In this document: one piece after another, positions 12,049 through 59,636 of the stretch
Layout: every line of letters begins with the position of its first letter
Numbering within the stretch: the stretch's first letter is position 1
DNA from: Candidatus Woesearchaeota archaeon
GTDB taxonomy: Archaea; Nanobdellota; Nanobdellia; SCGC-AAA011-G17; GW2011-AR18
DNA length: 64,000 nucleotides
Reading direction: 5' to 3'
Assembly (NCBI GenBank): GCA_018302545.1
Contig: JAGVZM010000003.1
Coordinates: 111,680 to 175,679 of the forward strand
The notes under the pieces: generated by a model
What the model was told of the DNA's origin: nothing
Databases searched by the model: none
What the model saw: only the letters and a program-made list of their open reading frames with translations
Made by a program: the position numbers and the translations under genes

Positions 12049-12142
12049 CGCCGACGGTAGGATTCGAACCTACAGATCCTTGCGGAAGGCAGTTTTCGAG
12101 ATTCAGCATGGTTCTGCTGCCCGACCATTAGGCGACGTCGGC
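12049..12142 (-). tRNA. tRNA-Ser(CGA) with a predicted 12-nt intron inside the 5' strand of the anticodon stem (about position 30/31)
   Basis: The minus strand reads GCCGACG TC GCCT AATGGTC GGGC A GCAG [AACCATGCTGAA] T CTCGAAA ACTGC CTTCCGCAAGGATCT GTAGG TTCGAAT CCTAC CGTCGGC G. There is a 7-bp acceptor, a GTTCGAATC T-arm, a long variable arm (class II) and discriminator G. The cloverleaf closes only if the bracketed 12 nt are removed. Confidence 0.75.
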
Positions 12143-23737: not shown

Positions 23738-24577
23738 ATGAAACATAATCTAATAGTAACTTTAACTTTAATTTTTTTATTCTTAATTTCACATCTCGTT
23801 GGGTTTTTTATAATAAACCATTATCTTCCAGAAGAAAAATCACTTCCATTAGGAATAGAAAAACCAAAATTAGATCCACAAACTTCCTTTATTCCAATAT
23901 TCTTAATATTATTAGGAGCTACTCTTTTAGCTTTATTATTAATTAAATTAGGAGCATTTAGAATATGGAAAGCTTGGTTTTTCTTAAGTATCTTTTTCAC
24001 ATTATTAATAGCACTCTCAGCATTTACTGGAGTTCTTGTGGGATTTATATTAGCCTTATTCCTGGCTTTATTCAAAACATTCAGACCAACTCCCTTGCTT
24101 CATAACTTTACAGAAATTTTTATCTATGGGGGATTAGCATCATTATTTGTGCCCATCTTAAATATTTGGTCTGTGTCTATACTATTAATTTTAATATCTA
24201 TATATGATATGATAGCAGTTTGGAAAACAAAACACATGGTTTCTATGGCAAAATTCCAAACAAAATCCAAAATGTTTGTTGGGTTATTAATACCCTATAA
24301 AAAATCTTTAAACTCTAAAAAAATTAATTTAAAAAAACAAAGAAATGATAATTTAGAGGCAATACTTGGTGGAGGAGATATAGCCTTTCCTTTAATGTTC
24401 TCAGGTGTAATACTAAAAACAAGTGGATTTTTACCTGCCTTAATTGCATCTGTAACTGCAGCTTTAGCTTTATTATTATTATTTATGCTTGCAAAAAAAG
24501 ATAAATTTTATCCAGCAATGCCATTCATTACAGCAGGATCTTTCATAGGATATTTGCTAATCTACTTATTATTTTGA
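23738..24577 (+). CDS. Presenilin / signal-peptide-peptidase homologue (A22-type GxGD intramembrane aspartyl protease)
   Basis: Polytopic, with the motifs ISIYDMIAVWKTKHM (YD), LGGGDIAFPLMF (GxGD) and GFLPALIAS (PAL) in the canonical order. Confidence 0.75.
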   Translation: MKHNLIVTLTLIFLFLISHLVGFFIINHYLPEEKSLPLGIEKPKLDPQTSFIPIFLILLGATLLALLLIKLGAFRIWKAWFFLSIFFTLLIALSAFTGVLVGFILALFLALFKTFRPTPLLHNFTEIFIYGGLASLFVPILNIWSVSILLILISIYDMIAVWKTKHMVSMAKFQTKSKMFVGLLIPYKKSLNSKKINLKKQRNDNLEAILGGGDIAFPLMFSGVILKTSGFLPALIASVTAALALLLLFMLAKKDKFYPAMPFITAGSFIGYLLIYLLF

Positions 24578-25138
24578 CCAAGCGTAAATTGTTAGACTAC
24601 TATAGTTTCCTAATCTAATATTATTATTTGTAGGATCCTCTATGGTAATGTCTGGAAAACTCATTGTTGTTGATTTAATATAAATGTGTTTTTCTTGAGG
24701 CAATGAATTCTTAAAATTAGTTTCTCTTTCATCTAAATTAGAACCTTGACTAGCAGGGGCATAGTAGCACTCGTAAATGTCTCCTGTTAAATTCAAACCA
24801 CAAGTTCTAACTGCATAATCCCAAGGATGAGCACTAGTTGGATAAGATAAAAACCCAATATAGCCTCTTACACATTCAGCACTACCTAATGTTTGAGGAG
24901 GAGTGTTAGTATCATTATCAAAATCAAAAGTATGGCTTCCACCTAAAACACAATTTCTAAAATAAGCATTTTCCTGCATCTCTTTTAGTATTGACTTTGT
25001 AGTCTGATCTAAATCTGGTGGAACTGCTGCAGTATCTTTTGGAACTTTAGGTAAAATTGCTATCATAAAACCAAGAACTATAATTATAGCAATTATTGCT
25101 TCTAGTATCTTTAAAAATCCATGTTTATTCATCACCAT
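24569..25138 (-). CDS. Pilin-like protein with a class III signal peptide (last gene of the pilus operon)
   Basis: N-terminus MVMNKHGFLKILEAIIAIIIVLGFMIAIL. 7-nt overlap with the upstream gene. Confidence 0.55.
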   Translation of the reverse strand: MVMNKHGFLKILEAIIAIIIVLGFMIAILPKVPKDTAAVPPDLDQTTKSILKEMQENAYFRNCVLGGSHTFDFDNDTNTPPQTLGSAECVRGYIGFLSYPTSAHPWDYAVRTCGLNLTGDIYECYYAPASQGSNLDERETNFKNSLPQEKHIYIKSTTMSFPDITIEDPTNNNIRLGNYSSLTIYAWSK

Positions 25139-26247
25139 GTTTTTATCCTCACTTTTACTGGAATTTTAACACCATCATCAGTAATTAAAAAACTATTAAA
25201 ATTTCTAACAAATACTTGCACATTTTCAGGAGGTTGTAAATTATTTGATGGAAATATAACATTAACATTAGAGGAACCTTGAGGCAAAGCTTCTACTGTT
25301 ATTATAAACTCTTTCAAATCAGGAAAACCCCACTTTTCTTTTATACATCCATAACCTATAGTACAGCCACTTCCAAGATCAATATTATTCAAATTCATAA
25401 AACTAGCTAAATCTATTCCTTCTAAACTTTCTTCTATTCCTATATCATATATTACAGGACATAAAGCAGCAACTTGATTATCATAAGGCCATGTTGTATT
25501 TCCAGAACCTAAACAAGCAGTTAAAGCTCCTGTAATATCTAAACTGGTTGAATCTGTATCAAAATTAATTGGAATATCTGAAAACATCAAATAATATTTT
25601 GTTTTATCTGGCATTTGTCCATTAGCTTGTGTAAAAAACTTTCCAGGAATACCAAAACCATTGTTCTCATCCCTATATTTAGTTTGATTGTCTCTTTCAG
25701 CTAGATTATGAGAATTGTATTGGGCTCTAGCAGCAATAACTAAACTCACATCAAGTTGTCTAGGATCACTACCACAAAAAGTCAATCCACCAGTAGCATT
25801 ATTACAAACTGGTAAAGGATTCTCATTAGAAACTAAAAAATTAGCACCATTGGGAGGATTATCTGTTGGAGTTTTAACTGCATAATAAGATTCAGCAAAT
25901 AAATTATCATTTAGATTATCAAGATAAGTAGTAAATCTATTATTAAAAGGAGTAGTAGCACAATTAGAGTTACAACTAACATTTATACTGTTCCTAGTTA
26001 ACAAAACAACTTGTTCATTAACAATACTTTCATTAGCATGATATAAAAAAATCGGAACTATATTGACTCTTTTATTAATATCATTCATAAATCCATCCTG
26101 AACAATATCCAATAATGTGTCTGAATCATAAACAGGAGTTAAACCTGGCCTAAATAAAATAAACATAAAAACAAGAGTTATCAAAAACAAACCAAGAGCG
26201 ATTATCCAATCTATTTCTTGTCCTATTCCTCTTTTATTATTAAACAT
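25132..26247 (-). CDS. Large pilin-like / pilus-associated protein with a class III signal peptide
   Basis: N-terminus MFNNKRGIGQEIDWIIALGLFLITLVFMFILF. 371 aa, Asn/Thr-rich with many N-x-S/T sequons. Confidence 0.55.
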   Translation of the reverse strand: MFNNKRGIGQEIDWIIALGLFLITLVFMFILFRPGLTPVYDSDTLLDIVQDGFMNDINKRVNIVPIFLYHANESIVNEQVVLLTRNSINVSCNSNCATTPFNNRFTTYLDNLNDNLFAESYYAVKTPTDNPPNGANFLVSNENPLPVCNNATGGLTFCGSDPRQLDVSLVIAARAQYNSHNLAERDNQTKYRDENNGFGIPGKFFTQANGQMPDKTKYYLMFSDIPINFDTDSTSLDITGALTACLGSGNTTWPYDNQVAALCPVIYDIGIEESLEGIDLASFMNLNNIDLGSGCTIGYGCIKEKWGFPDLKEFIITVEALPQGSSNVNVIFPSNNLQPPENVQVFVRNFNSFLITDDGVKIPVKVRIKTW

Positions 26248-27173
26248 TTGAACCTCTTTAATATAAACCTAGTGGGAATCATTAATAAAATTAGTGATTC
26301 TGCAGGATCAACAATTCCAGTTGCAGTACTTATAACTAAATATCCGCCTAAAGTCATAATTATAGAATGTTTTACTCCAGATTTATAATCTCCTTCACTA
26401 AATTTCCCAGTCATTAATCCTGCAAAAATACCCTGAACAATAATTGTAGTAATAAATATTGGGTTAAAATCAACATTGCCAGCACTTCCACCTAAACCAG
26501 TTATTCCTAAAGTTCCTAATCCCTGGCCAACATCACCTCCAACCAAACTTAATTTAGGTATTAAATAGATCTGCAAAACTATCATTATTGCAACAAAAAA
26601 GAAATAAATAAAATAGCTCTGTATAGTTTGTGTATAAGCATTACTCTTTCTTTCATCCTTTATTTTTTTAATTTCAAAAACAGACTTTGTAACAGCCTCT
26701 AAAACAGAACTCATGTCACCTCCACTTCTCTCAGCTTCTATAACAATATTTATTGATCTTTTAATTACTTTATTATCTGTATCTTCAGCAAAAATATTAA
26801 AAGCAGTATGAAGTGGATAACCCCATTCCAATTGATGTGCTAATTTTACAACATAAGGAGTTAAACTTCCAAAATTAACATTAGATACATGTATAATTGC
26901 TTGAGGAATAGTAACTCCAGATCTAACATTTTCTACTAAACTTCTAACAAACTCTAAAAATTTAATTTCTAACTCTTTTTGTCTTTTATTCTCTTCTAGA
27001 AAATCAAATAGGAATGCTAAACCTGCAATTAAAAATCCAACTACCAATATCGGGTTAAAATACCAAACTTTTGGACCAAAATTTGAAGTAAAATTAAAAA
27101 ATAAGATAACATCTATTAAAATTATTATACTCCCTAAAATTAATCCTATCCAATGTTTTGGTTTTAATTCCAT
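26223..27173 (-). CDS. Type II secretion system F / FlaJ-TadC-like platform protein (single T2SSF domain)
   Basis: T2SSF-like cytosolic helical bundle VRSLVENVRSGVTIPQAI ... IEAERSGGDMSSVLEAV flanked by TM helices. Confidence 0.7.
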   Translation of the reverse strand: MELKPKHWIGLILGSIIILIDVILFFNFTSNFGPKVWYFNPILVVGFLIAGLAFLFDFLEENKRQKELEIKFLEFVRSLVENVRSGVTIPQAIIHVSNVNFGSLTPYVVKLAHQLEWGYPLHTAFNIFAEDTDNKVIKRSINIVIEAERSGGDMSSVLEAVTKSVFEIKKIKDERKSNAYTQTIQSYFIYFFFVAIMIVLQIYLIPKLSLVGGDVGQGLGTLGITGLGGSAGNVDFNPIFITTIIVQGIFAGLMTGKFSEGDYKSGVKHSIIMTLGGYLVISTATGIVDPAESLILLMIPTRFILKRFKCLIIKEE

Positions 27174-28517
27174 TTATAATCCCTTTCCTGAGCTATTGAT
27201 AAATACCATAAACCCTATATTAAGTAAAGGAAGTGCAGCCAATACAGATATCCATGCAATTATTCCTACGCTTACTCCAGCTAAATCTCCACCAATAGAA
27301 TTAATTATTGCTAGAGTTACTAATAATAATAATGGGGATGCTATTAAAATAGCAGTATATATTTCAGAATACGTTCCTAAAGCTTGCACTTGTTTTTGTC
27401 TATCTAATTTATAAGTATTTAATGCTTCTTCAGATTTCTCATTTAAATAAGCCCTAAGGTCACCACCAGTTTCTATTGTCGAAATCATCCCATTTAATAA
27501 TTCTTTAAATTCAGGATTTGGTGTTATTTTTGCAATTTTAGCTAATGCTGTAGTTAAATTATATCCAAATAAGTTGACATAATTTAATATCTTCTTAATT
27601 TCTTTTTTTAACTCAGGGTATTCATCAGATTCAACAATCAATTGAAAGATACTTATAGGTTGTGCACCACTACCAGCAACAGCACTCATATGCACTAATG
27701 CAAAGGGCAATTCTAATTTTATTTTTTGATTCTTTCCACCTATCAAACTAGCTGGATAAAAGTAAAATCCTGCAAAAGTGAAGATCATTCCAAAAAAAGA
27801 GATTAAAGCAATAACCAAAATATTTAAATTAAAAGCAAAATTCAAAGCTAAAAAAAATAAGAATATTCCTGGAAATGATAATAATGTAAAAAATAACATC
27901 ATACTAACATAACTTCTAGATAGTAAATCTAATTCAACCATATTAAAATATTTAAACATTGGTTTAAAAAATTCAGGATATTTTTCAACTAAATTATCAG
28001 CTAAACCTTTCATAAATTTATTAGCAATTTTTGCAAAATCATTTGGTTTGTATATAGTATAGAACTCTTTTTCTAAGGCCATCTTGCCTCTAGATTTTAT
28101 TCTTTCTTCTTCTCTTTTCTTAAACTTATTAAGTTCTGATTCTGTTAAATTAATCTCATTTAAATATTTCTTTTTCTCTTGTGAATTCAGTTTCTTAAAT
28201 TTACTAGAACTAAAATTTGGTAAAGGCAAAGACTGCATATTCTCTCTTAAAACTATCTTTTTAGGTTTGGGTAAAACAAGCTGTGGCTTTGGCAATGGTT
28301 TCTTCTCATCAACCTTCTCAGATGAAGATAGAGCATTAATTAATTTAGTATTTTCATTTTCAATGCTATTAAGTATATTATTTCTATTATTGAAAAATTT
28401 ATCGTAAGTTATTCTATTTTTTACTTTATCAATTTTAACTATTTCTGTATCTATATTATCAAGTTCTTCAACTAGTTTCTGAATTTTTCTAGCTCCTTCA
28501 ATAATATCACTTGACAT
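27174..28517 (-). CDS. Type II secretion system F / FlaJ-TadB-like platform protein with a long N-terminal coiled/basic extension
   Basis: LPFALVHMSAVAGSGAQPISIF ... ISTIETGGDLRAYL is the T2SSF domain. About 190 aa of K/E/N-rich N-terminus, with TM helices. Confidence 0.7.
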   Translation of the reverse strand: MSSDIIEGARKIQKLVEELDNIDTEIVKIDKVKNRITYDKFFNNRNNILNSIENENTKLINALSSSEKVDEKKPLPKPQLVLPKPKKIVLRENMQSLPLPNFSSSKFKKLNSQEKKKYLNEINLTESELNKFKKREEERIKSRGKMALEKEFYTIYKPNDFAKIANKFMKGLADNLVEKYPEFFKPMFKYFNMVELDLLSRSYVSMMLFFTLLSFPGIFLFFLALNFAFNLNILVIALISFFGMIFTFAGFYFYPASLIGGKNQKIKLELPFALVHMSAVAGSGAQPISIFQLIVESDEYPELKKEIKKILNYVNLFGYNLTTALAKIAKITPNPEFKELLNGMISTIETGGDLRAYLNEKSEEALNTYKLDRQKQVQALGTYSEIYTAILIASPLLLLVTLAIINSIGGDLAGVSVGIIAWISVLAALPLLNIGFMVFINSSGKGL

Positions 28518-28704
28518 TTTTCTCTTTCTCTATCAATTTATTTAGTCCTGCAAGTAAATATAGAAATTGCTTTTTAAAATTATTTAACTGGTTTTTATAC
28601 TGTTCACTATTCTTATCTATTTTAGGATCTTGTAAAAATTTCTCATAATTCTCAGCAACCTCAACTAAGATGCTTGAATTTTGTTTTAATAGGACATTAC
28701 TCAT
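28507..28704 (-). CDS. Small helical protein (65 aa), pilus operon component of unknown role
   Basis: Overlaps both neighbours (4 and 11 nt), which implies translational coupling. Confidence 0.45.
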   Translation of the reverse strand: MSNVLLKQNSSILVEVAENYEKFLQDPKIDKNSEQYKNQLNNFKKQFLYLLAGLNKLIEKEKNVK

Positions 28705-30644
28705 ATTAATTTAAACCTCCTTAGAACCAACTCAGGAGACTTATAATATTCATGAACAACTGCTTGAACTTCTTTAAAACCAACAATTCCTCTTTTAAAT
28801 AATTCTTTAACTAATCTTATTCTAATATTAAATTCATTCAAAACTTGTTCAGGTGTAAAACCATAGTGAGTAGCTATATTCTCAAATACCTTACTATTAG
28901 GATTAAAAATGAAGGTATTATTCCTTGGATCCCATCTGAAGACATTGTTTGTAACTTCTCCACCTAATCCTTCTTTAACTTCAACAATTTCATCTATACT
29001 AACTACCTTTCTAACATCTCTTCCTTTGACTTTTGTCTCAGCCATAACAACTACAGCAGATAATGTTTCTATTAAAGAGCCAGATAAATTAATTGGATTT
29101 GTCTCTAATCTTCTTATTAAAGTTCCTACATTTTCAGCATGCATTGTAGCCATACCAGGATGTCCTGAAGCAAAAGCCTGGAATAAAACAAACGCTTCTT
29201 TACCTCTAACTTCTCCTACAATGATATAATCTGGTCTCTGTCTAAAGCTTGCTCTAAGCAAATCAAAGAGACTGACTTCACCATATCTTTGTCCAACTAG
29301 GTTACTTAAACCAACACCTGATCTAGCAACACTAGGTAACCAGTTCTCATGCTCTAATTGAAGTTCTCTTGTATCCTCAATTGAAACAACCCTAGCTTGG
29401 GGGGGTATAAAGAAAGCTATAGAATTAATAAATGAAGTCTTACCACTACCTGTTCCACCTATTACCATCAAACTATGTTCATATTCAATAGACATCCATA
29501 GATAAGAATAAACTTCAGCACTAGCAGTTCCCTTAATCATTAATTGTAATGGACTCCAAGGTTCCTTTGTAAACTTTCTAAGCGTAAATGTTGGTCCTTT
29601 TGAAGATACGTCTATACTAAAAGTAGCATTAACTCTTGTTCCATCAGGCAAACTTCCATCTAATAAAGGTTCAGCATAACTAACATATCTTCCACATTTT
29701 TGTGCTAATTTTTCAACAAAAGAAGCAAGATTATGCATATCTCTATAAACTAAACTAGTCCTAATATTTCTAAATTTTCTATGAACAATATACAAAGGGC
29801 TGTTTAAACCATTACATTCAATATCTTCTATAAAATAATCATTCATCATAGGCTCTAATTCATTTAGACCTACAAAATCTCTATAAATATAATACATTGT
29901 TCTAAGGTAAGAGTCCATAGTAATTTCTATAGAGAGTTCTGTAAGTAAAACTTTAATGTTTTTTTCAAGATAAATAATAACTGTATCTCTATCATTAACA
30001 CTTATAAAACTCAAATTGATTAGCTCTTTTATACCGTCTTCTAAAATGTCCAATATTTGTTTTTCATGTTCGCTTAATAAAGGTTCTTCAATTTCATAAA
30101 CTAATTCTGTCTCTTTTTCATCCCAACTAACCTTAGCATAAGCATAAGGGGGAATTAAAGGGTACTTTATATTAACTAATTTAGGATCATTAATGTCTGG
30201 TAAAGTAGGAATAGTCTGTTCTTGAATTTTAAATAAAGGTTTATCTTCTTCCATAGTCTTCATAGGTTTGGGTATAGCCGCAATAGAATCATCTATATTT
30301 GGAGGAGGTATATTATTTGTTTGATCTTTAGGTACTTTTATCTCTTTATTAATTTGGATGTTATTCTCTATTTCATTTTTTTTATCTAATGAATTTTTAG
30401 TTTCTTGCTTCTGATCTTGTGAAATTTTATTCTTTAATTTAGGTCTAACAATTATTAGATATAATATTGCACCAACAACTCCTAAAAAAATAATTAAAAT
30501 TATCCATAAGACTTTTTTATCAAACTTTTTCATAATTGCATCTATTAAAACCCAAATCCAAAATACAAACATAAGCAACCACACAACACCAACAACTATT
30601 AGAACTATAGAACCTAATCCAAGAACACTATCTAGTAAAGCCAT
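28701..30644 (-). CDS. Type II/IV secretion system ATPase (FlaI/VirB11/PilB superfamily) with an N-terminal PLDc_N-like membrane hairpin
   Basis: Walker A GGTGSGKTSF, Asp/His-box region RPDYIIVGEVRGKEA ... GHPGMATMHA. Residues ~8-68 (LIVVGVVWLLMFVFWIWVLIDAIMKKFDKKVLWIILIIFLGVVGAILYLIIVRP) form two TM helices. Confidence 0.85.
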   Translation of the reverse strand: MALLDSVLGLGSIVLIVVGVVWLLMFVFWIWVLIDAIMKKFDKKVLWIILIIFLGVVGAILYLIIVRPKLKNKISQDQKQETKNSLDKKNEIENNIQINKEIKVPKDQTNNIPPPNIDDSIAAIPKPMKTMEEDKPLFKIQEQTIPTLPDINDPKLVNIKYPLIPPYAYAKVSWDEKETELVYEIEEPLLSEHEKQILDILEDGIKELINLSFISVNDRDTVIIYLEKNIKVLLTELSIEITMDSYLRTMYYIYRDFVGLNELEPMMNDYFIEDIECNGLNSPLYIVHRKFRNIRTSLVYRDMHNLASFVEKLAQKCGRYVSYAEPLLDGSLPDGTRVNATFSIDVSSKGPTFTLRKFTKEPWSPLQLMIKGTASAEVYSYLWMSIEYEHSLMVIGGTGSGKTSFINSIAFFIPPQARVVSIEDTRELQLEHENWLPSVARSGVGLSNLVGQRYGEVSLFDLLRASFRQRPDYIIVGEVRGKEAFVLFQAFASGHPGMATMHAENVGTLIRRLETNPINLSGSLIETLSAVVVMAETKVKGRDVRKVVSIDEIVEVKEGLGGEVTNNVFRWDPRNNTFIFNPNSKVFENIATHYGFTPEQVLNEFNIRIRLVKELFKRGIVGFKEVQAVVHEYYKSPELVLRRFKLI

Positions 30645-30660
30645 TATACCTCTTTTGTTA

Positions 30661-30690
30661 TATAAAAAATAAAAAAAGAAGTTTATATAT
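30661..30690. repeat. 30-nt exact repeat copy 1 (tataaaaaataaaaaaagaagtttatatat)
   Basis: Identical to 31845-31874. Both copies lie directly 3' of paralogous pilin genes and 5' of the next gene. Confidence 0.9.
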
Positions 30691-30703
30691 GTTTCTTAAT
30701 CTA

Positions 30704-31306
30704 TTATTTTGGGAAATCTCTAGAAATTCCATTGCCTGGACAAGGATTAGAAATTCCTTCAATCACAACATTAGGCTTAAATTCTAATCTTACAGGTTCA
30801 GTTATTAATGAATTATTATATAATAATACAAAACTTTGTATTGAATTTCCAGGAATGCTATAATCTCTTACACCAATACCCTCATTATATTTAACAATTT
30901 GAGTGCTATTATCTGTAGAATTATAAGGATAAGTTTTTACATTAGATGTGTCAACAACTTCAATAATAGTTGCTCCTTTATTAAATATCCTAACATTAAA
31001 TCCGTTTATAGATCTAGCTGCATTGTTCTCTACTGTAATGCCCATTAAAATTAAGTTAATTCCAGCACTTTCAGGGTTCGGATTAGGATACAATTGTCTA
31101 TTTAGAGGAGCTAAACTAGCTTTAATATCTAAAGAACCAATAACTTCTGTACAAGCAAGGCTAATATCTGTAGATTTAGCAGTCCCTTCTTGGGTTTTTT
31201 TAAATAGGTTTGTACCCCAAGTAATAGCTATAGCAGCAAGAACTATTGTAAATCCAATGATAAGCACAGTAGCTATCAAAGGACTTATACCTCTCTTATT
31301 ATTCAT
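30704..31306 (-). CDS. Archaeal type IV pilin-like protein (Pilin_N/DUF1628-type N-terminus)
   Basis: MNNKRGISPLIATVLIIGFTIVLAAIAITWGTNLFKKTQ. The 5' ~100 nt are near-identical to those of 31885-32391. Confidence 0.8.
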   Translation of the reverse strand: MNNKRGISPLIATVLIIGFTIVLAAIAITWGTNLFKKTQEGTAKSTDISLACTEVIGSLDIKASLAPLNRQLYPNPNPESAGINLILMGITVENNAARSINGFNVRIFNKGATIIEVVDTSNVKTYPYNSTDNSTQIVKYNEGIGVRDYSIPGNSIQSFVLLYNNSLITEPVRLEFKPNVVIEGISNPCPGNGISRDFPK

Positions 31307-31842
31307 TATCTATTAACCTCTGCGATGCTTACTACAACAGCATTATTAAAAACTCCTTCATTTCTAATTATCAAATCATTTAAACCAACTAAAGTATTTG
31401 ATTTACCTTGCTTATTAGTTATATTAGCAAAACCACTATAGTTTGTATAAACATTTATAGAATATCTATTGTTTGTGTTAGTTGAATCTGTCCTTACAAT
31501 CAGTTTGCCTTCAGAAACATCTATTCCCTCTTCACTAATTTTTACTCTGGAATCATTAAAATTCCAAGCAATTGTTTCTCTTTGATCATCTAAAACAAAA
31601 GATCCTTTTCTTATATTAACTGTAACTATCCTCTGGCTCCCAGGACCTTCTCTAACAACTTCTCTTACATTATCATCTAATTTATGCATAACTTCTTTTG
31701 ATTGAATTATTATATTCTTATCTTTTAATTTATTAACAACAGGTAATCCTGCAGCAAGTAATACAGAAATAATAATAATACCTAAACCAAAATAGAGCAC
31801 CGCACTAATCCAAACACTAGCACCCTTTTTTCCAAAAATCAT
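31306..31842 (-). CDS. Divergent pilin-like protein with a class III signal peptide
   Basis: MIFGKKGASVWISAVLYFGLGIIIISVLLAAGLPV. 178 aa. Confidence 0.55.
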   Translation of the reverse strand: MIFGKKGASVWISAVLYFGLGIIIISVLLAAGLPVVNKLKDKNIIIQSKEVMHKLDDNVREVVREGPGSQRIVTVNIRKGSFVLDDQRETIAWNFNDSRVKISEEGIDVSEGKLIVRTDSTNTNNRYSINVYTNYSGFANITNKQGKSNTLVGLNDLIIRNEGVFNNAVVVSIAEVNR

Positions 31843-31844
31843 AA

Positions 31845-31874
31845 TATAAAAAATAAAAAAAGAAGTTTATATAT
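31845..31874. repeat. 30-nt exact repeat copy 2
   Basis: Identical to 30661-30690. Confidence 0.9.
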
Positions 31875-31884
31875 CTTTTGCAAA

Positions 31885-32391
31885 TTAAACTTCCTTAGTA
31901 ATTCCTTGACCTGGACATTGTTTAGCTATTCCTTCAATAACAACCTTTGGTCTTAATACAACTTTAGTCGCATTAGGAACTAAACCATTGTTATAAGTAA
32001 AATTAAATGTCCTTATTGTATTAGCTGGTACTAAATAATTGCCAGGAATTATCTGTGCTGCTTGAGTTACATTATCTGTATCTAATACATCTGCTATAGT
32101 ATCTCCTATATTTTGTACTCTAACTACAAATCCATTTACCTCTCTAGAAACACCATTATCAAGAGTCATTGTAAAAGTATTTGGTGCAACTCTATACAAT
32201 TTAAGGTCTAAATTTCCAATAACTTCTGTACAAGCAATGTTAATGTCTGAAGTCTCTGCAGTCGCTGTTTGTGTTTTTTTAAATAGGTTTGTACCCCAAG
32301 TAATAACCAATGCAGCTATTACTACAGTAAATCCAATGATAAGCACAGTAGCTATCAAAGGACTTATACCTTTCTTATTTTTATTTTTCAT
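31885..32391 (-). CDS. Archaeal type IV pilin-like protein
   Basis: MKNKNKKGISPLIATVLIIGFTVVIAALVITWGTNLFKKTQ. A GAGGTGA SD precedes it. Confidence 0.8.
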   Translation of the reverse strand: MKNKNKKGISPLIATVLIIGFTVVIAALVITWGTNLFKKTQTATAETSDINIACTEVIGNLDLKLYRVAPNTFTMTLDNGVSREVNGFVVRVQNIGDTIADVLDTDNVTQAAQIIPGNYLVPANTIRTFNFTYNNGLVPNATKVVLRPKVVIEGIAKQCPGQGITKEV

Positions 32392-32402
32392 TATTTTTCA
32401 CC

Positions 32403-33017
32403 TCAAGGTCTTATTTTTAATTCTATAGGATCCTCACAATATTTGGATTCTCCGTCGATTGTAAATTGAGGATATATCTCAACTTTACTAGCATTTGTTG
32501 CATTTACTCCGGCAGTTACACCAAGAGCTCTATTAACTATACCAACTACACCATATATACTTGGTACTGGGAATTGAAGTTTAGCTAAGTTAGTATCTGC
32601 ACTCCATTGGTTATTGGCACCATCCCAAACAGAAAATGAATTCTGGCTGTTTGGATCTATGGCTTGCAAATCTCTAATGTTTGCAATTTCATTACCCTCA
32701 TATAATATAAATCTAAATCCACTAACTTCTTGATCTTGGTTACGGTTTTTAATCCTAATTGCTAAAGTGTCTGGAACAGCAGGATTCGGAACTGTACCTC
32801 CACTTAAAGTTGAAGGATCTCTAACAACTTCTGTATCAATCTTAAAACCAGTAGTACAAGCTAAATTAAATTTAGAAGCGCTTGCTGTATCATCTACAGT
32901 TGTTCTAAACAATTTTGTACCCCAAGTAATAACCAATGCAGCTAATACTATTGTAAATCCGATAACTAAAACAGTAGCTATCAAAGGACTTATACCTTTC
33001 TTATTTTTATTTTTCAT
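32403..33017 (-). CDS. Archaeal type IV pilin-like protein
   Basis: I chose the start at the second Met (MKNKNKKGISPLIATVLVIGFTIVLAALVITWGTKLF). Its RBS and first ~50 nt are identical to those of 31885-32391, and this removes the overlap of the longer track ORF (to 33041). Confidence 0.75.
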   Translation of the reverse strand: MKNKNKKGISPLIATVLVIGFTIVLAALVITWGTKLFRTTVDDTASASKFNLACTTGFKIDTEVVRDPSTLSGGTVPNPAVPDTLAIRIKNRNQDQEVSGFRFILYEGNEIANIRDLQAIDPNSQNSFSVWDGANNQWSADTNLAKLQFPVPSIYGVVGIVNRALGVTAGVNATNASKVEIYPQFTIDGESKYCEDPIELKIRP

Positions 33018-33031
33018 TATTTTCCACCTCT

Positions 33032-33532
33032 CTATGAACATTTAACTTGCTGTAATTTATCTATACATAAAACTAATTTATGTCCTTCTCCTTCTTCTTT
33101 TATTACTCCAGGAATTACTTCCACGCTTTCTGGACCATTAGCTCTTGGATTATTATATGAAAAAATAAATTCTTCTCCAGGACTAATTTTCCTTCCACTT
33201 GGAGGAATTCCAGATGCAGATCCATCCTGATAATACGAAACAATCCTTATTGCATCAACATCAGAATTTCCAACATTAGTTACTTTAACATCCAAAGTAT
33301 TTCCATTAATGCTACAACTAGCAGAGATATCTTGAGCTATCTGTTCTTTAATACCACAATCTACTTTTTGTATATTCCCTATAACAATTCCACTAAAAAG
33401 AAGCCATACCCCTACTGCAATTACAACAACAGCACCCACAAGAATAACAGTAGCTATCAAAGGACTTATACCTTTCTTACCACCAAACCTCTTTTCCATA
33501 CTAAGTTTAGAAACATTTTCATTTAAAAGCAT
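33032..33532 (-). CDS. Archaeal type IV pilin-like protein
   Basis: ...MEKRFGGKKGISPLIATVILVGAVVVIAVGVWLL. The true start may be the internal Met at 33499. Confidence 0.7.
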   Translation of the reverse strand: MLLNENVSKLSMEKRFGGKKGISPLIATVILVGAVVVIAVGVWLLFSGIVIGNIQKVDCGIKEQIAQDISASCSINGNTLDVKVTNVGNSDVDAIRIVSYYQDGSASGIPPSGRKISPGEEFIFSYNNPRANGPESVEVIPGVIKEEGEGHKLVLCIDKLQQVKCS

Positions 33533-33587
33533 ATCGGTTTAATTGATTTTTTCATGTTTTTTAATTATTATAAAAAACAAAATAGAT

Positions 33588-34214
33588 TCAAGTACAGCCT
33601 GGAGGACCACGAACATCTAAACATAATTGAGTATAATTAATTACTATCTGTCTGTTTACACATCTAATAAATTGAGATTTTTCTGTATCATTAATTATAG
33701 GTATAATCTTTATTTCATCATCATTAAAACCTGTGTTTAAATCTATACTAATATTATATTTATTATTTTGACCAGGACTTATAGAAGATAAAGTTGGAGT
33801 TGCTCCTGAAGAATCTACAATTTGATAAGTTACAGAACCAGCACCTGGAGCAGTAATGATCAATTTATGAATTGAAAAAGTTCCCTTGTTTATTAAAGTT
33901 AATGGGCTTAATAATCTCCTCGTTGGTGAAGGGTTTGGTCCAAAATTAATTGGTCTTCCAGATCCAGGAGTAGCAGGATCCATTGTAACCGGATCTATAC
34001 CCCCCTCTTGATGTGTGTTAAAATTAGCCCTATCCAAAACATCATAACCTAATCCAACAGAGTCGCAATAAACACTTTCCTCAGCAATCAAATTTGGATC
34101 AAATTCCTTAGCTTGTTTAATAAAATAACTAGAAACAACTGCTCCTAAAGTAACAACAAAAGCTACAAGTATAACTGCAGATAATAAAGGACTTATACCT
34201 CTTTTATTTTTCAT
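33588..34214 (-). CDS. Archaeal type IV pilin-like protein (first gene of the operon)
   Basis: MKNKRGISPLLSAVILVAFVVTLGAVVSSYF. 208 aa with 5 Cys. Confidence 0.75.
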   Translation of the reverse strand: MKNKRGISPLLSAVILVAFVVTLGAVVSSYFIKQAKEFDPNLIAEESVYCDSVGLGYDVLDRANFNTHQEGGIDPVTMDPATPGSGRPINFGPNPSPTRRLLSPLTLINKGTFSIHKLIITAPGAGSVTYQIVDSSGATPTLSSISPGQNNKYNISIDLNTGFNDDEIKIIPIINDTEKSQFIRCVNRQIVINYTQLCLDVRGPPGCT

Positions 34215-34237
34215 TAAAACATTAAATAGAAAACTAG

Positions 34238-34251
34238 ATTTTAAACCTTTC
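34238..34251 (-). promoter_or_regulatory. Candidate BRE/TATA element for the pilus operon
   Basis: The minus strand reads GAAAGG TTTAAAAT, centred ~28 nt upstream of the ATG at 34214. This would give a leaderless or near-leaderless transcript. Confidence 0.3.
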
Positions 34252-34335: not shown

Positions 34336-34485
34336 TTAATTAGACTCTTTAATTATTTGATTAGCATCAGGTTCAATTGATAAACTATTGAAAGCACCGC
34401 AATTCCCGCATCTTTCTGGAGGTCTAGCTTTAGGCATTTTAGGACTATACTTAAAGCTGCAATTCCTACAGTAATATCTTACCAT
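34336..34485 (-). CDS. Small zinc-ribbon protein (49 aa)
   Basis: Hand-found ORF MVRYYCRNCSFKYSPKMPKARPPERCGNCGAFNSLSIEPDANQIIKESN, with CxxC-x20-CxxC. Confidence 0.45.
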   Translation of the reverse strand: MVRYYCRNCSFKYSPKMPKARPPERCGNCGAFNSLSIEPDANQIIKESN

Positions 34486-35001: not shown

Positions 35002-35454
35002 ATGATAAAAAAGACGGTATCAAAAGACACTCCATTAGCTGAAATTACTTTAAGAAAATATGAAAAACCTTCTTCTGAAATGCCCAAAAGAGATGCAATA
35101 AAAAAATTGTGTTTATCAATTGGATTATTGCAGCCAGGAGACTCAAGAGATATTGTTGTAGATATTTTCCATGTTCTTCACGATGCAAAATTACAATTAA
35201 ATTCAGAAGAAATTCAAAAAAGAGTTGTTGGCTATAGAAAAAAATCAAATCTTCCACTTCAAGGAATTGCACAATCAAATATTAGAAGACAATTAAGAAG
35301 ATTAAGAGAATTATTTTTAGTAGAAAAAGTAAAGAATACTTATAGAATATCTGAAAACGAAAACATCCATAATATCTTCGAAGAAAAAATAAAAAAGTTC
35401 TATATTCCAACAATAGTTTCAAGAGTAGAAGAATATTTTAAACATCTAAAATAA
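35002..35454 (+). CDS. Putative winged-helix DNA-binding protein
   Basis: The HTH-like segment GIAQSNIRRQLRRLRELFLVEK. The assignment is weak. Confidence 0.35.
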   Translation: MIKKTVSKDTPLAEITLRKYEKPSSEMPKRDAIKKLCLSIGLLQPGDSRDIVVDIFHVLHDAKLQLNSEEIQKRVVGYRKKSNLPLQGIAQSNIRRQLRRLRELFLVEKVKNTYRISENENIHNIFEEKIKKFYIPTIVSRVEEYFKHLK

Positions 35455-35488: not shown

Positions 35489-36145
35489 ATGAAATCAAAT
35501 TCACCTTCAGGAGAAAAAACCTCTGAATTTTCATCATTTCATAGAGGTATTCCAAATCCTAATATTTTACTGATGTATTTAGAGGAAAAACAACATAATG
35601 CAATTACTAAATTAAACCCATTAATCAAAGATCTAATAAAAAATATAAAAAATAAAAAATTATTAGATATTGGTTGTGGAATTGGTTCTGTTCTTTGTCA
35701 AGGCTTAATTTACTATGGATTAAATCCAAAAAATTTATACTCTTTAGATCAGGATCCGAAAAATTTTGAGAATGATGAGTATTCAAGAGAAAATAAAGTA
35801 GTATGCAAAGCTGAAAACCTACCATTCGAATCTAATTTTTTTGATGTTGTTCATTCAAATGAATTAACTTTAGATAATCCAGATCTAGATTACCTGAAAG
35901 TTTTAAAAGAAATTTGTAGAGTATTAAAACCAAATGGTTTTTACATTGCAAACGAACATTTTGATCAAGTTGAGGAGATGAAAAAAATAAATGAGAATAT
36001 AAAAAACAATTTTAAAGAAATAATTAAAAATAAAAATCTAGCATCAATAGGTTTCAAGCCATTAATAAGAGCAAAATATTTAGATTCACCAAAGATTGGA
36101 AAATATCAGTTTATATTTTACTTATTCCAAAAGAAATCATCTTAA
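35489..36145 (+). CDS. Class I SAM-dependent methyltransferase
   Basis: Motif I LLDIGCGIG and post-I/II patterns, with LKPNGFY. Confidence 0.7.
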   Translation: MKSNSPSGEKTSEFSSFHRGIPNPNILLMYLEEKQHNAITKLNPLIKDLIKNIKNKKLLDIGCGIGSVLCQGLIYYGLNPKNLYSLDQDPKNFENDEYSRENKVVCKAENLPFESNFFDVVHSNELTLDNPDLDYLKVLKEICRVLKPNGFYIANEHFDQVEEMKKINENIKNNFKEIIKNKNLASIGFKPLIRAKYLDSPKIGKYQFIFYLFQKKSS

Positions 36146-36865
36146 TTGTTTTTCAATAGCATTCTTAAATAAGATAAAATCTCTATTTCCACTTATAGTT
36201 TCATTTCCAATTATAAAATAAGGAGTAGAATCAACTCCAGCTGCTCTTCCTTCTGCTAAATTTTTATCTACCCTAATCTTCATTGCGCTACTTTCTAAAC
36301 AATTGTTAAATAATTCTGAATCTAATCCAATATCTGCAGCAGCCTTTTTTAACTTATTCTCTTCTAAATTTTCTCCAAGTAAGAAGATTGAATCATGCAT
36401 CTCCCAGAACTTTCCTTGATCTCCTGCACATTCAGTAGCTTCAGCAGCTTTTCTTGCGTATTCATGGAAGGGTAAAGGAAAATGTTTAAAATTAATCTTA
36501 ACTTTTCCAGTTTTTACATATTCATCTTCAATTTGTTTAAAAGTACCTGTTGCAAAAGAAGCACAAAATGGACATTGAAAATCACTATATTCAATAATTT
36601 CTAAAGTAGCATTATCACTTCCCTTAACATTTTCTCCATCAACTGTTAAAGGAGTATAAGTTACCTCTGGTTTAAAAGCAAGATATAATAAAATAATCAC
36701 TATAATAAAACCAAGAGCATAATAGATATATTTCTTCTTTATCTTTTTCTTCGTTTTATCTTTATTCTCAAACTGAACTGTACCAGAATGTTTATCTTTT
36801 TTATGTTGTTCTAAAGAATTCTTATTTTCAAACTCTCTATCACACTGATTACACTTTTTTTTCAT
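36137..36865 (-). CDS. DsbA-family thiol:disulfide oxidoreductase with an N-terminal C2H2 zinc finger and a TM anchor
   Basis: CNQCDREFENKNSLEQHKKDKH (C-x2-C-x3-F-x5-L-x2-H-x4-H), then the TM helix YIYYALGFIIVIILLYLAF, then a thioredoxin fold with CPFC. Confidence 0.75.
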   Translation of the reverse strand: MKKKCNQCDREFENKNSLEQHKKDKHSGTVQFENKDKTKKKIKKKYIYYALGFIIVIILLYLAFKPEVTYTPLTVDGENVKGSDNATLEIIEYSDFQCPFCASFATGTFKQIEDEYVKTGKVKINFKHFPLPFHEYARKAAEATECAGDQGKFWEMHDSIFLLGENLEENKLKKAAADIGLDSELFNNCLESSAMKIRVDKNLAEGRAAGVDSTPYFIIGNETISGNRDFILFKNAIEKQLR

Positions 36866-36928: not shown

Positions 36929-37993
36929 TTAATTAGTAGGATTAGATGAGAGAGAATGTTCGATTTGTTCTAAAAAAGATGATAAATCTCCTGAAGTAAC
37001 TTTTTCGTGAACTATTTTATAATACAAAACACCGTATTGTAAATGTCGAGAATCTTCAGCATTTGTTATTACTGCTTTGGTTGTGAGATCTTGTGATTTA
37101 AGTGTTGGATCCAATATCCTTCCATCCTCTAATCTTACTCGTGCATGACCCATTTGTTGATCCCATTTGATATACTCTTGTCGTGATTTTATACCTGCAA
37201 CCTGAAGTAAAGTTTGAGCTACAGCAGCATGATGCCTACATACCCCTACCTTACATTCTTTTAGATCCCCAACAGCTACAGTTCTTTGATCATCCCCTTC
37301 TACAACTTCCTTAACACCTTCTTTACTATAAGGCAACATTCCAATTGCCATTCTGGCAATAATATCAAGTAATAAATCTTCTTCTAAATTTTCAGAGAGC
37401 ACAATCTTTCTCAACATGCAGATTTCATTTCTAAGATCATACTTATTTATTCTAAATTTTTCTAGACCGTTCCTTTCAACTCCCTGACTATATGGCCCAC
37501 AATTGGTAAATCCATCTGGAATATATGAAAGCAACCCAGGCACAATATCTTTTGTTTCTGGAAAAACAATCCTATCCAACAAAATTTCTGTCAGTAAAGA
37601 CCACCCAATCTCCTCATAACTCTCTCGTAATTTGCTTGCTTTCCATCTTTCTTCCTGTTCTTTTGTGGGGGGTACGTCAGTCTTCTTAGGAGCGATGACT
37701 GTTTCCTCCTCATAAAGATAACGCTCATATGCTATACAATGAATGTATGCATTGAAAATCTTATGAGTCATCCATGGGTCACGTTGATGTGCTTCGGCAG
37801 CTTGCTCTAAAATTCGGGGTGTAATCCTCTCATGCCTTGGGTTAGGAAGAATAAAAAGACTTCCTCTAGAATTTTCCAAAACTAATTCTGGTCTTAGGAG
37901 AATTGATATCATCATTCTCTGAGAATATGAAAGACTATTAGGATTATATAGCTCTTTAAAAACTTCCATAGGATCAATTGTATAATTAACCAT
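36929..37993 (-). CDS. Transglutaminase-like (papain-fold) superfamily protein
   Basis: The C-terminal core is GVCRHHAAVAQTLLQVAGIKSR ... GHARV ... ILDPT (Cys-His-Asp order). The gene looks richer in G+C than its surroundings. Confidence 0.5.
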   Translation of the reverse strand: MVNYTIDPMEVFKELYNPNSLSYSQRMMISILLRPELVLENSRGSLFILPNPRHERITPRILEQAAEAHQRDPWMTHKIFNAYIHCIAYERYLYEEETVIAPKKTDVPPTKEQEERWKASKLRESYEEIGWSLLTEILLDRIVFPETKDIVPGLLSYIPDGFTNCGPYSQGVERNGLEKFRINKYDLRNEICMLRKIVLSENLEEDLLLDIIARMAIGMLPYSKEGVKEVVEGDDQRTVAVGDLKECKVGVCRHHAAVAQTLLQVAGIKSRQEYIKWDQQMGHARVRLEDGRILDPTLKSQDLTTKAVITNAEDSRHLQYGVLYYKIVHEKVTSGDLSSFLEQIEHSLSSNPTN

Positions 37994-59516: not shown

Positions 59517-59636
59517 CGGGCCCGATGGGATTTGAACCCACGACCCTCTGCTAACTTCCTAGAAGCTAGAAGGCAGCTACGCCAAGTTTAAAATAAATTA
59601 AACTAGTATGCGCTATCCAGACTGCGCTACGAGCCC
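59517..59636 (-). tRNA. tRNA-Arg(TCT) with two predicted introns (5' strand of the anticodon stem ~27/28, and canonical 37/38)
   Basis: The minus strand reads GGGCTCG TA GCGC AGTCTGGATA GCGC A T [31 nt] CTGC CTTCTA [GCTTCTAGGAAGTT] A GCAGA GGGTC GTGGG TTCAAAT CCCAT CGGGCCC G. The second intron forms a textbook bulge-helix-bulge (CTTC/GAAG central helix with 3-nt bulges TAG and TTA). Confidence 0.75.

Follow-up and report, generated by a model that had tools for sequence, protein, structure and literature searches.

A probable Clade 2 / System 2 ('euryarchaeal') type IV pilus operon in a member of the Woesearchaeota

Gene organization and distribution of the locus

The stretch of DNA analysed in this study comprises 64,000 nucleotides (nt) of contig JAGVZM010000003.1 from a Candidatus Woesearchaeota archaeon (positions 111,680 to 175,679 of the forward strand; hereafter the window). 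According to the listing of its open reading frames (ORFs), twelve consecutive minus-strand ORFs, g01 to g12, occupy positions 24569-34214 of the window. They very likely constitute a chromosomal type IV pilus (T4P) operon of a member of the Woesearchaeota (DPANN) which belongs to the 'euryarchaeal' Clade 2 / System 2 class. A preliminary description, made from the letters of the sequence alone, had already recognised twelve packed genes here, and all of them were recovered at the same coordinates. Its operon, given as 24569-34251, ended in non-coding DNA upstream of g01, and its gene list was one short, as it missed a conserved zinc-ribbon ORF of 49 amino acids (aa). The genes of the locus are listed below; a slash within a protein N-terminus marks the putative processing site.

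34336..34485, minus strand: zinc-ribbon ORF, 49 aa; conserved thirteenth gene of the locus, 5' of the first pilin gene
33588..34214, minus strand: g01, PilA-like prepilin, 208 aa, MKNKRG/ISPLLSAVILVAF, four Cys; TIGR02537 32.5 bits
33032..33532, minus strand: g02, PilA-like prepilin, 166 aa as the longest ORF, four Cys; TIGR02537 23.7 bits
32403..33041, minus strand: g03, PilA-like prepilin, 212 aa as the longest ORF, one Cys pair; TIGR02537 34.9 bits
31885..32391, minus strand: g04, PilA-like prepilin, 168 aa, one Cys pair (54/159); TIGR02537 34.3 bits
31306..31842, minus strand: g05, minor-pilin-like protein, 178 aa, KKG/ASVWISAVLYFGLG; PF23960 DUF7289
30704..31306, minus strand: g06, PilA-like prepilin, 200 aa; TIGR02537 35.3 bits
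28701..30644, minus strand: g07, pilus assembly ATPase, 647 aa; T2SSE 2.6e-29
28507..28704, minus strand: g08, soluble protein, 65 aa, conserved; overlaps both neighbours
27174..28517, minus strand: g09, platform N-half (TadB/EpdJ-like half of FlaJ/PilC), 447 aa; T2SSF 1.2e-16
26223..27173, minus strand: g10, platform C-half, 316 aa; T2SSF 3.9e-15
25132..26247, minus strand: g11, accessory protein, 371 aa, conserved KRG/ N-terminus; orthologues 3' of platform genes
24569..25138, minus strand: g12, accessory protein, 189 aa, last operon gene; conserved N-terminus with an invariant Glu

The spacing between the operon genes spans a 25-nt overlap to a 59-nt gap (from g01 to g12 in order: +55, -10, +11, +42, -1, +59, -4, -11, 0, -25 and -7 nt). 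The tight packing with overlaps noted earlier is therefore real, with the correction that the largest gap is 59 nt and not about 55 nt. Shine-Dalgarno-like GAGGT motifs precede seven of the twelve genes and, together with the overlapping stop and start codons, indicate that the operon genes are probably co-expressed. No Shine-Dalgarno motif was found upstream of g01; approximately 30 nt upstream of this gene lies AAAGGTTTAAAAT, which may be a BRE/TATA-like motif. Long T-runs and TATA-like AT-rich motifs are present in the intergenic gaps at 31843-31884 (g04-g05) and 30645-30703 (g06-g07), and they could be internal terminators or promoters that split the expression of the pilin genes from that of the assembly genes. 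RNA folding of the 3' end of the operon was uninformative (z = -0.1).

The zinc-ribbon ORF (MVRYYCRNC...CGNCG, with a CxxC...CxxC arrangement) was found by tblastn at the same position in five relatives (L001, L003, L005, L009 and L031; the L numbers denote comparison loci) with 45-59% identity, in each case immediately upstream of the g01 orthologue. Pfam gave generic zinc-ribbon matches only, and the ORF might, as a guess, encode a small regulator or be a thirteenth member of the operon.

The neighbours of the operon are housekeeping genes, i.e., those for the alpha and beta subunits of PheRS and for ribosomal proteins L1 and L10, and the locus is therefore chromosomal and does not lie on a mobile island. 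The G+C content of the window is approximately 28%. The related contigs are titled Woesearchaeota or Nanoarchaeia metagenome-assembled genomes (MAGs), and the DPANN-type genome suspected from the sequence is therefore a right attribution. A comparison of synteny across MAGs, which had been proposed as a check, showed conserved synteny of the entire operon in MAGs of Woesearchaeota/Nanoarchaeia (L001-L009 and L031). Identity to the window proteins is 62-81% for the ATPase, 48-72% for the platform halves, 40-52% for g08, 38-59% for g05, 24-40% for g11 and 32-50% for g12. Homologues of g07 number more than 7,000 at E < 1e-20, and the best 120 that bear a source name come without exception from MAGs of Woesearchaeota, Nanoarchaeia or an unclassified archaeon. 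Source names of the g07 homologues include 'type II/IV secretion system ATPase subunit', 'Flp pilus assembly complex ATPase component TadA' and 'FlaI'.

Assembly ATPase and its phylogenetic placement

The product of g07 had been described as a FlaI/VirB11-type ATPase, and this was borne out. It matches T2SSE (PF00437, E 2.6e-29), its Walker A motif is intact (GGTGSGKT at residue 396), and it can be aligned with the GspE of Archaeoglobus fulgidus (AfGspE) and with FlaI across the Asp box, Walker B and the His box. PLDc_N (1.1e-7) and PilB3_C (0.011) are matched as well, and a precomputed PilB3_C domain is carried by many close homologues. The protein begins with a membrane anchor (residues ~1-70, a PLDc_N-type hairpin; 30435-30644) and a low-complexity linker (~70-145), after which follow an AfGspE-like N-domain, the ATPase core and a C-terminal domain. 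Positive residues after the helix would fit a cytoplasmic ATPase. N-terminal hydrophobic segments are present in 36 of the 120 closest homologues, and in the ones inspected a Lys-rich stretch and then a low-complexity linker come after them. Among the compared ATPases, clear N-terminal transmembrane (TM) anchors are confined to the Woesearchaeota subclade of the window; outside it, three of the fetched ATPases of Clades 2, 3 and 4 have a hydrophobic N-terminus, and two of these seem to reflect a wrongly called start.

The g07 orthologues in relatives are interrupted by one or two inteins (L003:7760-10963, L005:4600-8184, L006:430-3702, L007:9968-12970, L008:1197-4325, L009:9923-14434 and L031:6011-8638), whereas the window copy is intein-free. 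Insertion has occurred at three sites within catalytic motifs, namely behind window residue 336, residue 402 (Walker A, GSGK/T) and residue 492 (His box, FA/SGH). The inteins show the Cys/Ser...HN hallmarks, and one of them is a mini-intein of 167 aa. Their presence in relatives is one of the traits by which this sublineage stands out.

Archaeal T4P ATPases were divided into four groups by Makarova et al. (PMC4858521). Clade 1 is the Epd type of Methanococci, Methanobacteria and Thermococci, Clade 2 is the 'euryarchaeal' type associated with PilA-family pilins, Clade 3 is the archaellum, and Clade 4 includes the TACK-type systems such as Aap, Ups and the bindosome. AfGspE (AF0659, PDB 2OAP) is labelled 'Clade 2, arCOG01817' in their Fig. 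S4. When g07 was compared with the PDB sequences of solved ATPases, AfGspE was the best relative (2OAP, 386 bits, residues 148-643 vs 21-506), with 255 bits for FlaI of Sulfolobus acidocaldarius and 143 bits for CpaF. In phmmer comparisons, the g07 core scored 400-445 bits with Clade 2 ATPases of Thermoplasmata, DHVE2 and Aenigmatarchaeota, ~310 with Bathyarchaeia, ~260 with archaellum ATPases and 245 with Thermococcus.

A neighbour-joining (NJ) tree was built from 120 ATPases and 487 columns with CpaF as the root and 200 bootstraps; 80 further loci had been fetched by alignment of AfGspE, g07, FlaI and a Bathyarchaeia ATPase. The window ATPase clustered with those of Woesearchaeota and Aenigmatarchaeota, within an AfGspE-containing clade that also holds Thermoplasmata, Methanomicrobia, MGII and Nitrosopumilus. 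The grouping of the window with Aenigmatarchaeota to the exclusion of AfGspE, FlaI and CpaF was recovered in 187 of 200 bootstraps.

The same data separate the locus from several characterised systems. The archaellum, which had already been discounted on gene content, is ruled out by a g07 score of 395 bits against a cut-off of 550 for the FlaI equivalog NF058587, by exclusion of the window from the archaellum clade (S. acidocaldarius FlaI and the Haloferax ATPase of L099) in 200/200 bootstraps, and by the absence of FlaH, FlaF/G and FlaCDE. Regarding the latter, the only P-loop ORFs of at least 110 aa in the window are g07 and one ABC ATPase, with no KaiC-like/FlaH or MinD protein, and the operon proteins have no Pfam or NCBIfam matches to archaellin, FlaF/G or FlaC/D/E, in agreement with the preliminary description. 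The Clade 4 equivalogs score far below their cut-offs (UpsA <=32 bits vs 130, UpsF 53 vs 400, BasE 215 vs 1000 and BasF 48 vs 1300) and the window ATPase falls outside a clade of Bathyarchaeia + Sulfolobales in 200/200 bootstraps; an Ups-, bindosome- or Aap-like pilus is thereby ruled out as well, as had been proposed, in a tree without named AapE and UpsE sequences. As for a bacterial Tad/Flp pilus, g07 reaches 148 bits against a cut-off of 373 with the TadA-family model TIGR03819 and prefers AfGspE to CpaF (386 vs 143 bits). No other Tad components were found, and the split-platform layout is the sole likeness; this candidate was rejected.

Platform, coupler and the comparison with Epd pili

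The products of g09 and g10 each contain one T2SSF domain (PF00482, 61 and 56 bits vs a cut-off of 25; residues 276-400 in g09), in accordance with the two separate single-domain platform proteins described before. On the ArlJ profile of 555 positions, g09 covers positions 4-245 and g10 positions 306-537. They thus match the N- and C-halves of FlaJ/ArlJ profiles, and the platform is therefore split into two genes. In all loci with two short platform genes outside the Woesearchaeota group of the window, the first gene matches g09 best and the second g10 (34 of 34), and of 48 loci in which the platform is one long gene, 41 show the alignment of g09 on the N-terminal side of that of g10.

The gene g08 overlaps g07 by 4 nt and g09 by 11 nt and has a Shine-Dalgarno-like GGAGGT motif, and judged from this arrangement it would be translationally coupled to the genes for the ATPase and the platform N-half. 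The coupled 65-aa ORF of the preliminary description is thus a genuine feature, conserved in seven loci (L001-L005, L009 and L028) at 40-52% identity; it matches no Pfam or NCBIfam family. Its neighbour g09 carries a cytoplasmic N-terminal extension of ~190 aa. The g08 gene was found only where the g09 orthologue has such a long extension (L001-L005 and L009) and is gone in L006-L008, where g09 is short. This co-occurrence suggests that g08 and the g09 extension may interact.

A platform made from two genes is also known from Epd pili (EpdJ/EpdK) and from bacterial TadB/TadC, and the operon could on this account be regarded as an Epd-like (Clade 1 / System 1) pilus. Like the window, both Epd of Methanococcus maripaludis and bacterial Tad/Flp have one bifunctional-type ATPase, no PilT and a two-gene platform; System 1, marked by two platform genes, has been reported in DPANN (bioRxiv 10.64898/2026.04.22.720090), and NCBI names some g07 orthologues 'Flp pilus assembly complex ATPase component TadA'. 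However, paired tadC genes are common in Clade 2 too. The window ATPase stands apart from Thermococcus (Clade 1 by elimination) and CpaF, which were separated from the rest in 200/200 bootstraps, and its scores with CpaF and with TIGR03819 point the same way. Epd differs from the window in its ATPase clade, its dedicated EppA peptidase, its very short major pilins and its DUF2341 adhesins, and Tad in its Flp pilins, TadV, TadZ and secretin. Neither the operon nor the window contains an EppA-type peptidase with nine TM segments, a DUF2341/PilY-like adhesin, MinD/FleN or EpdE-type pilins of ~70 aa. An Epd-like pilus is consequently considered very improbable, and its dismissal in the preliminary description is now supported by ATPase phylogeny, pilin type and accessory genes.

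Pilin-like proteins

The products of g01-g04 and g06 have in common the motif [KR]G/ISPL[IL][AS][TA]V, after which comes a hydrophobic helix. With 23.7-35.3 bits, each of the five exceeds the cut-off of 20 of the NCBIfam model TIGR02537 (archaellin/type IV pilin N-terminal domain), which agrees with the five archaeal prepilin N-termini noticed from the sequence. They are 155-208 aa long and 32-56% identical in pairwise comparisons (g04-g06 56%). Each of them has a Cys near residue 50 and another ~10 residues before the C-terminus, with four Cys in g01 and g02, which suggests that the paired Cys may form stapling disulfides. Weak matches to the solved archaeal pilins 8REY, 9MYG and 8FJ5 were found for g04.

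The start codons of two genes are probably downstream of those of the longest ORFs. For g03, the likely start is M9 (33017), which gives MKNKNKKG/ISPLIATVLVIGF, with AGAGGTGG located 6 nt before the ATG of M9; for g02 it is M12 (33499), which gives MEKRFGGKKG/ISPLIATVILVG, as orthologue N-termini read MQKRLSKKG/ISPL. These starts are favoured because of the orthologue N-termini and the Shine-Dalgarno-like motifs.

In relatives, the number of PilA genes varies from three to five and conservation is mainly N-terminal, a variability that is expected of exposed shaft subunits when compared with conserved machinery. Orthologues of g01 hold the first position in L001, L003, L005, L007, L009 and L031. 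The gene g06 is an extra paralogue between g05 and the ATPase gene; it is present in L005, and its position is empty in L001, L003, L009 and L031.

The divergent sixth pilin-like protein of the preliminary description, g05, just passes DUF7289 (PF23960; 28.0 bits vs a cut-off of 27). Its orthologues (38-59% identity) lie directly upstream of the ATPase gene in L001, L003, L007, L009 and L031, and in L005 one pilin gene away from it, same as in the window. In Thermoplasmatales L038, the class III protein directly upstream of the Clade 2 ATPase also matches DUF7289 (43.3 bits), and the proteins at the equivalent position in L034 (DHVE2) and in L079 gave no DUF7289 match. We infer that DUF7289 is equivalent to arCOG02911, which would put g05 in the minor-pilin position of Clade 2.

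Accessory proteins g11 and g12

Class III-like N-termini had been read on the 371- and 189-aa proteins at the end of the operon, and in both families a conserved K[KR]G/ N-terminus followed by a TM helix was indeed found. In the g11 protein (KRG/IGQEIDW; family consensus KRG/IGxE[IV]DW), this N-terminus leads into a TM helix and a middle region that is hypervariable, and the C-terminal domain is conserved and has conserved Cys residues. Its orthologues come after the platform genes in L001-L006 and L008. DUF7287 was matched weakly by seven of ten family members (best E 7e-4). The homologue search gave four to six proteins, which limited the depth of the alignment, and the AlphaFold2 model from a 7-sequence alignment was poor (pLDDT 57), with no meaningful Foldseek match in PDB (best E 0.84); the family profile found nothing among PDB sequences at E 10. 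The protein could be either a minor pilin or a bitopic component of the assembly machinery or tip.

In g12, the N-terminus NKHG/FLKILEAIIAI is followed by a Pro-rich linker and an alpha/beta domain. Its family comprises 112 clusters at 50% identity (P0128-P0239) with the N-terminal consensus NKKG/[FY]x[KR]x[LIM]E[AS], in which the Glu six residues past the Gly (E13) is invariant. The usual Phe/Tyr at +1 together with this Glu is reminiscent of the Phe1/Glu5 of bacterial type IV pilins. The AlphaFold2 model is confident (pLDDT 89.8, pTM 0.77) and shows a TM helix, the Pro-rich linker, helices and two alpha-beta-beta units, but no significant Foldseek match in PDB was obtained (best E 0.064), and the family profile found nothing among PDB sequences at E 10. 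Weak DUF7288 matches occurred in two of 72 family members. A g12-like protein also follows the platform genes in L074 and L081, and in Aenigmatarchaeota L088 a protein with a g12-like N-terminus is found there together with a 152-aa protein that matches DUF7287 weakly (E 0.063).

Prepilin peptidase

A prepilin peptidase encoded outside the pilus operon is usual in archaea. In Ca. Mancarchaeum, a single FlaK-like gene lies away from the pilus locus (PMC5498576). A screen of all fetched loci for PibD-like ORFs by TM count and D...GxGD motif found none.

Convergent with the operon, at 23738-24577 on the plus strand and with a 9-nt overlap with g12, is a gene for a GxGD protease of the presenilin/SPP family (YD, GGGD and PAMPF motifs). 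It stands next to the operon in three of 111 T4P loci, which are the three closest relatives. A role of this protease as a stand-in for the prepilin peptidase is unsupported, as it is an ordinary archaeal PSH-family member with such restricted adjacency; its position is treated as ordinary local synteny and not as replacement of PibD.

Class of the pilus and comparison with related loci

The operon has the traits of the type IV filament superfamily, i.e., a T2SSE ATPase, a T2SSF platform and subunits with class III-like N-termini that would be cleaved. The preliminary description considered that it fits no named archaeal system, and this view could not be maintained. The ATPase nests in the AfGspE clade with the same order of pilin, ATPase, TadC and TadC genes, and the locus matches Clade 2 (PMC4858521) / System 2, a class to which the characterised PilB3C3/PilA pili of Haloferax volcanii and the solved ATPase AfGspE belong. 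The assignment as a Clade 2 / System 2-type pilus is thus based on the ATPase clade, the platform organization, the pilin type and the adjacent putative minor pilin. According to Makarova et al. (PMC4858521), the ancestral set of Clade 2 consists of the ATPase, TadC, the minor pilin arCOG02911 and PilA-family pilins; two tadC-like genes occur in many Clade 2 loci, the conserved minor pilin lies by the ATPase, and Nanoarchaea are included. For Aciduliprofundum, their Table S4 lists an arCOG02911 pilin, the ATPase, a TadC of 332 aa and a TadC of 290 aa. The order minor pilin-ATPase-TadC-TadC was also found in the fetched loci of Thermoplasmata, Methanolobus, Methanoregula, MGII, Nitrosopumilus and Aenigmatarchaeota.

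Several points weigh against this assignment. The bootstrap value for the window plus AfGspE versus all other groups is moderate (146/200, 73%), in a tree without named sequences of EpdL, AapE, UpsE and the Haloferax volcanii PilB1-5. Clade 1 is represented in it by one Thermococcus ATPase (L111), assigned by elimination on the basis that Thermococci hold Clade 1 and archaellum ATPases only. Of the HMM checks that had been suggested, T2SSE and T2SSF gave passing scores, but Pfam Pilin_N remained sub-threshold in three proteins (17.6-22.6 bits vs 25.2), with E-values of 0.007 for g03 and 2e-4 for g04. In the MacSyFinder survey of Sivabalasarma and Albers (2026; bioRxiv 10.64898/2026.04.22.720090), System 2 platforms are single genes and the two-gene platforms of DPANN belong to Systems 1 and 4A, and the models of that survey might label the locus otherwise than as Clade 2 in the sense of Makarova et al. 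No A24-like prepilin peptidase is encoded in the 64-kb window according to a motif and Pfam screen of the multi-TM ORFs, which had also been noticed in the preliminary description. Finally, instead of being pilins, g11 and g12 may stay uncleaved as bitopic proteins of the membrane.

The closest likeness is to the Clade 2 loci of Aciduliprofundum boonei and of DHVE2/Thermoplasmata (L034, L038, L041 and L079). These share with the window an AfGspE-like ATPase, PilA-family pilins, a putative class III minor pilin (DUF7289) in the arCOG02911 position 5' of the ATPase gene, two TadC genes for the N- and C-halves and a peptidase outside the locus. Unlike them, the window has five PilA paralogues within the operon, an ATPase anchor, the 65-aa ORF, a long extension of the platform N-half, and g11 and g12 after the platform; the Thermoplasmata loci often have a second ATPase instead.

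The characterised members of System 2 are the adhesion pili PilB3-PilC3/PilA1-6 of Haloferax volcanii and Pil1 of Halobacterium salinarum. The window resembles Haloferax PilB3C3 in ATPase clade (as assigned by Makarova et al., the H. volcanii sequences being outside our tree), in Pilin_N/TIGR02537-type pilins and in the location of the peptidase elsewhere, and the PilB3_C domain of g07 homologues is shared with PilB3. In contrast to the window, the haloarchaeal Clade 2 loci L070 and L084 have a single long platform gene, and haloarchaeal PilA genes are scattered in the genome (PMC4858521). AfGspE (2OAP/2OAQ) differs from g07 in lacking the N-terminal anchor and the low-complexity linker. Within DPANN, a 'euryarchaeal-type' T4P locus of about nine genes (MIA14_0252-0260) was reported in Ca. 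Mancarchaeum acidiphilum (PMC5498576) and Clade 2 ATPases in Nanoarchaeum and Nst1 (PMC4858521); likened by description, they are a precedent for Clade 2 pili, with a proposed function in host interaction, in other DPANN phyla.

The locus therefore adds a member to a catalogued pilus class with modest sublineage elaborations and is no new kind of machine. It is conceivable, although doubtful, that the elaborations define a distinct DPANN-specific filament subtype derived from Clade 2, a class of its own specialised for host-cell contact, with a tethered ATPase, g08 and the extended platform N-half, the Glu-bearing g11/g12 and the zinc-ribbon gene as its marks. Such a subtype would agree with the restriction of clear ATPase anchors to the Woesearchaeota subclade of the window (36 of the 120 closest homologues having hydrophobic N-termini), with the co-occurrence of g08 and the long g09 extension, and with g12-type N-termini 3' of the platform genes in both Woesearchaeota and Aenigmatarchaeota L088. 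The confident g12 model without a solved counterpart, the synteny of the zinc-ribbon ORF in five relatives and the clade formed by Woesearchaeota and Aenigmatarchaeota ATPases (187/200 bootstraps) are likewise in its favour. On the other hand, the core of ATPase, split platform, PilA pilins and DUF7289 pilin is common to non-DPANN Clade 2 loci. The weak links of g11/g12 to DUF7287/DUF7288, which are existing Pfam families, imply that these proteins may not be DPANN-specific, and the TM anchor and g08 are missing in Woesearchaeota L006-L008, hence they appear as sublineage decorations. A related and likewise doubtful reading is that the loci of Woesearchaeota and Aenigmatarchaeota together represent a branch of Clade 2 peculiar to DPANN, with a conserved accessory module of their own, made up jointly of the self-anchoring ATPase, the coupler with the extended platform N-half, the zinc-ribbon gene and the Glu-bearing g11/g12.

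Possible assembly mechanism and function

As a Clade 2 / System 2 pilus, the machine might work in the following way. The five PilA-like prepilins, and probably also g05, g11 and g12, would enter the membrane, and a peptidase of the PibD/FlaK type encoded elsewhere in the genome would cleave behind the conserved [KR]G and thereby remove their short, basic leader peptides. The g07 hexamer, which is AfGspE-like, is expected to sit on the g09/g10 platform with its own N-terminal anchor holding it at the membrane, and its ATP hydrolysis would lift mature pilins from the membrane into a helical filament. The shaft could consist of one or more of the variable PilA paralogues, with g05 (DUF7289), g11 and g12 as low-abundance components for priming or at the tip or base. 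The cytoplasmic link between ATPase and platform would probably be formed by g08 and the N-terminal extension of g09.

Instead of a long adhesive pilus, the operon might encode a short pseudopilus for secretion, bindosome-like surface display or DNA uptake. The eight structural candidates, with conserved low-abundance-type g05, g11 and g12, resemble sets of pseudopilins, pilus-based uptake of DNA or nutrients is commonly proposed for DPANN, and an ABC-2 exporter, whose gene is the second one downstream of the operon, shows conserved synteny in close relatives. Yet this adjacency is a matter of general synteny among close relatives only. No substrate-binding proteins with class III signals and no ComEC/DprA-type genes were seen in the parts of the window examined, the scores with the BasE and BasF models stay well under the cut-offs, and a set of multiple, diverging PilA paralogues with Cys pairs is more usual for subunits exposed on a filament. 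A pseudopilus is hence thought to be rather unlikely.

For a Clade 2 pilus of this kind, adhesion to surfaces or host cells is the likely role, if one may argue from analogy: it is made plausible by the Haloferax PilA pili and by the DPANN literature, in which pili are the standard hypothesis for host contact and DNA uptake (e.g., PMC5498576). Woesearchaeota and other DPANN archaea occur in abundance, their genomes are reduced and their dependence on hosts is presumed, and a conserved and widespread pilus of the lineage, with more than 7,000 homologues of its ATPase, is a reasonable candidate for the attachment apparatus. If the accessory module were a host-recognising complex at the tip or base, the pilus would be the organelle by which a very large lineage of uncultured archaea attaches to its hosts. 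The genomic finding as such confirms the comparative surveys of 2016 and 2026, and the membrane-anchored ATPase, the g08 coupler and the Glu-bearing g11/g12 pair are modest, testable additions to them.

Neighbouring genes

Several genes around the operon were inspected as well. At 35002-35454 on the plus strand, a 150-aa protein with a weak match to ArsR-type helix-turn-helix (HTH) domains is encoded, with 69-83% identity in relatives. In L001, L003 and L009, it is encoded on the opposite strand to that of the operon, at a distance of 2.4-5.2 kb upstream of the pilin genes, and may be a regulator or no more than a conserved neighbour.

At 36137-36865 (minus strand), 2 kb upstream of the pilin genes, lies the gene for a DsbA/thioredoxin-like protein that is anchored in the membrane and has a C2H2 zinc finger at its N-terminus. 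It was dropped as a candidate pilus accessory, as the gene is not in the related Woesearchaeota loci compared. The adjacent stretch at 36929-37993 (minus strand), also near the operon, encodes a 354-aa protein with a weak transglutaminase-core match (E 0.005), which was likewise weighed as a possible accessory of the pilus. Transglutaminase-family surface peptidases have been linked to some archaeal T4P loci (Makarova et al., PMC4858521), but the match is too weak to interpret.

Away from the operon, two tRNA matches on the minus strand, of 94 nt at 12049-12142 and of 120 nt at 59517-59636, were detected by Rfam and missed by ARAGORN; they are probably intron-containing archaeal tRNA genes.

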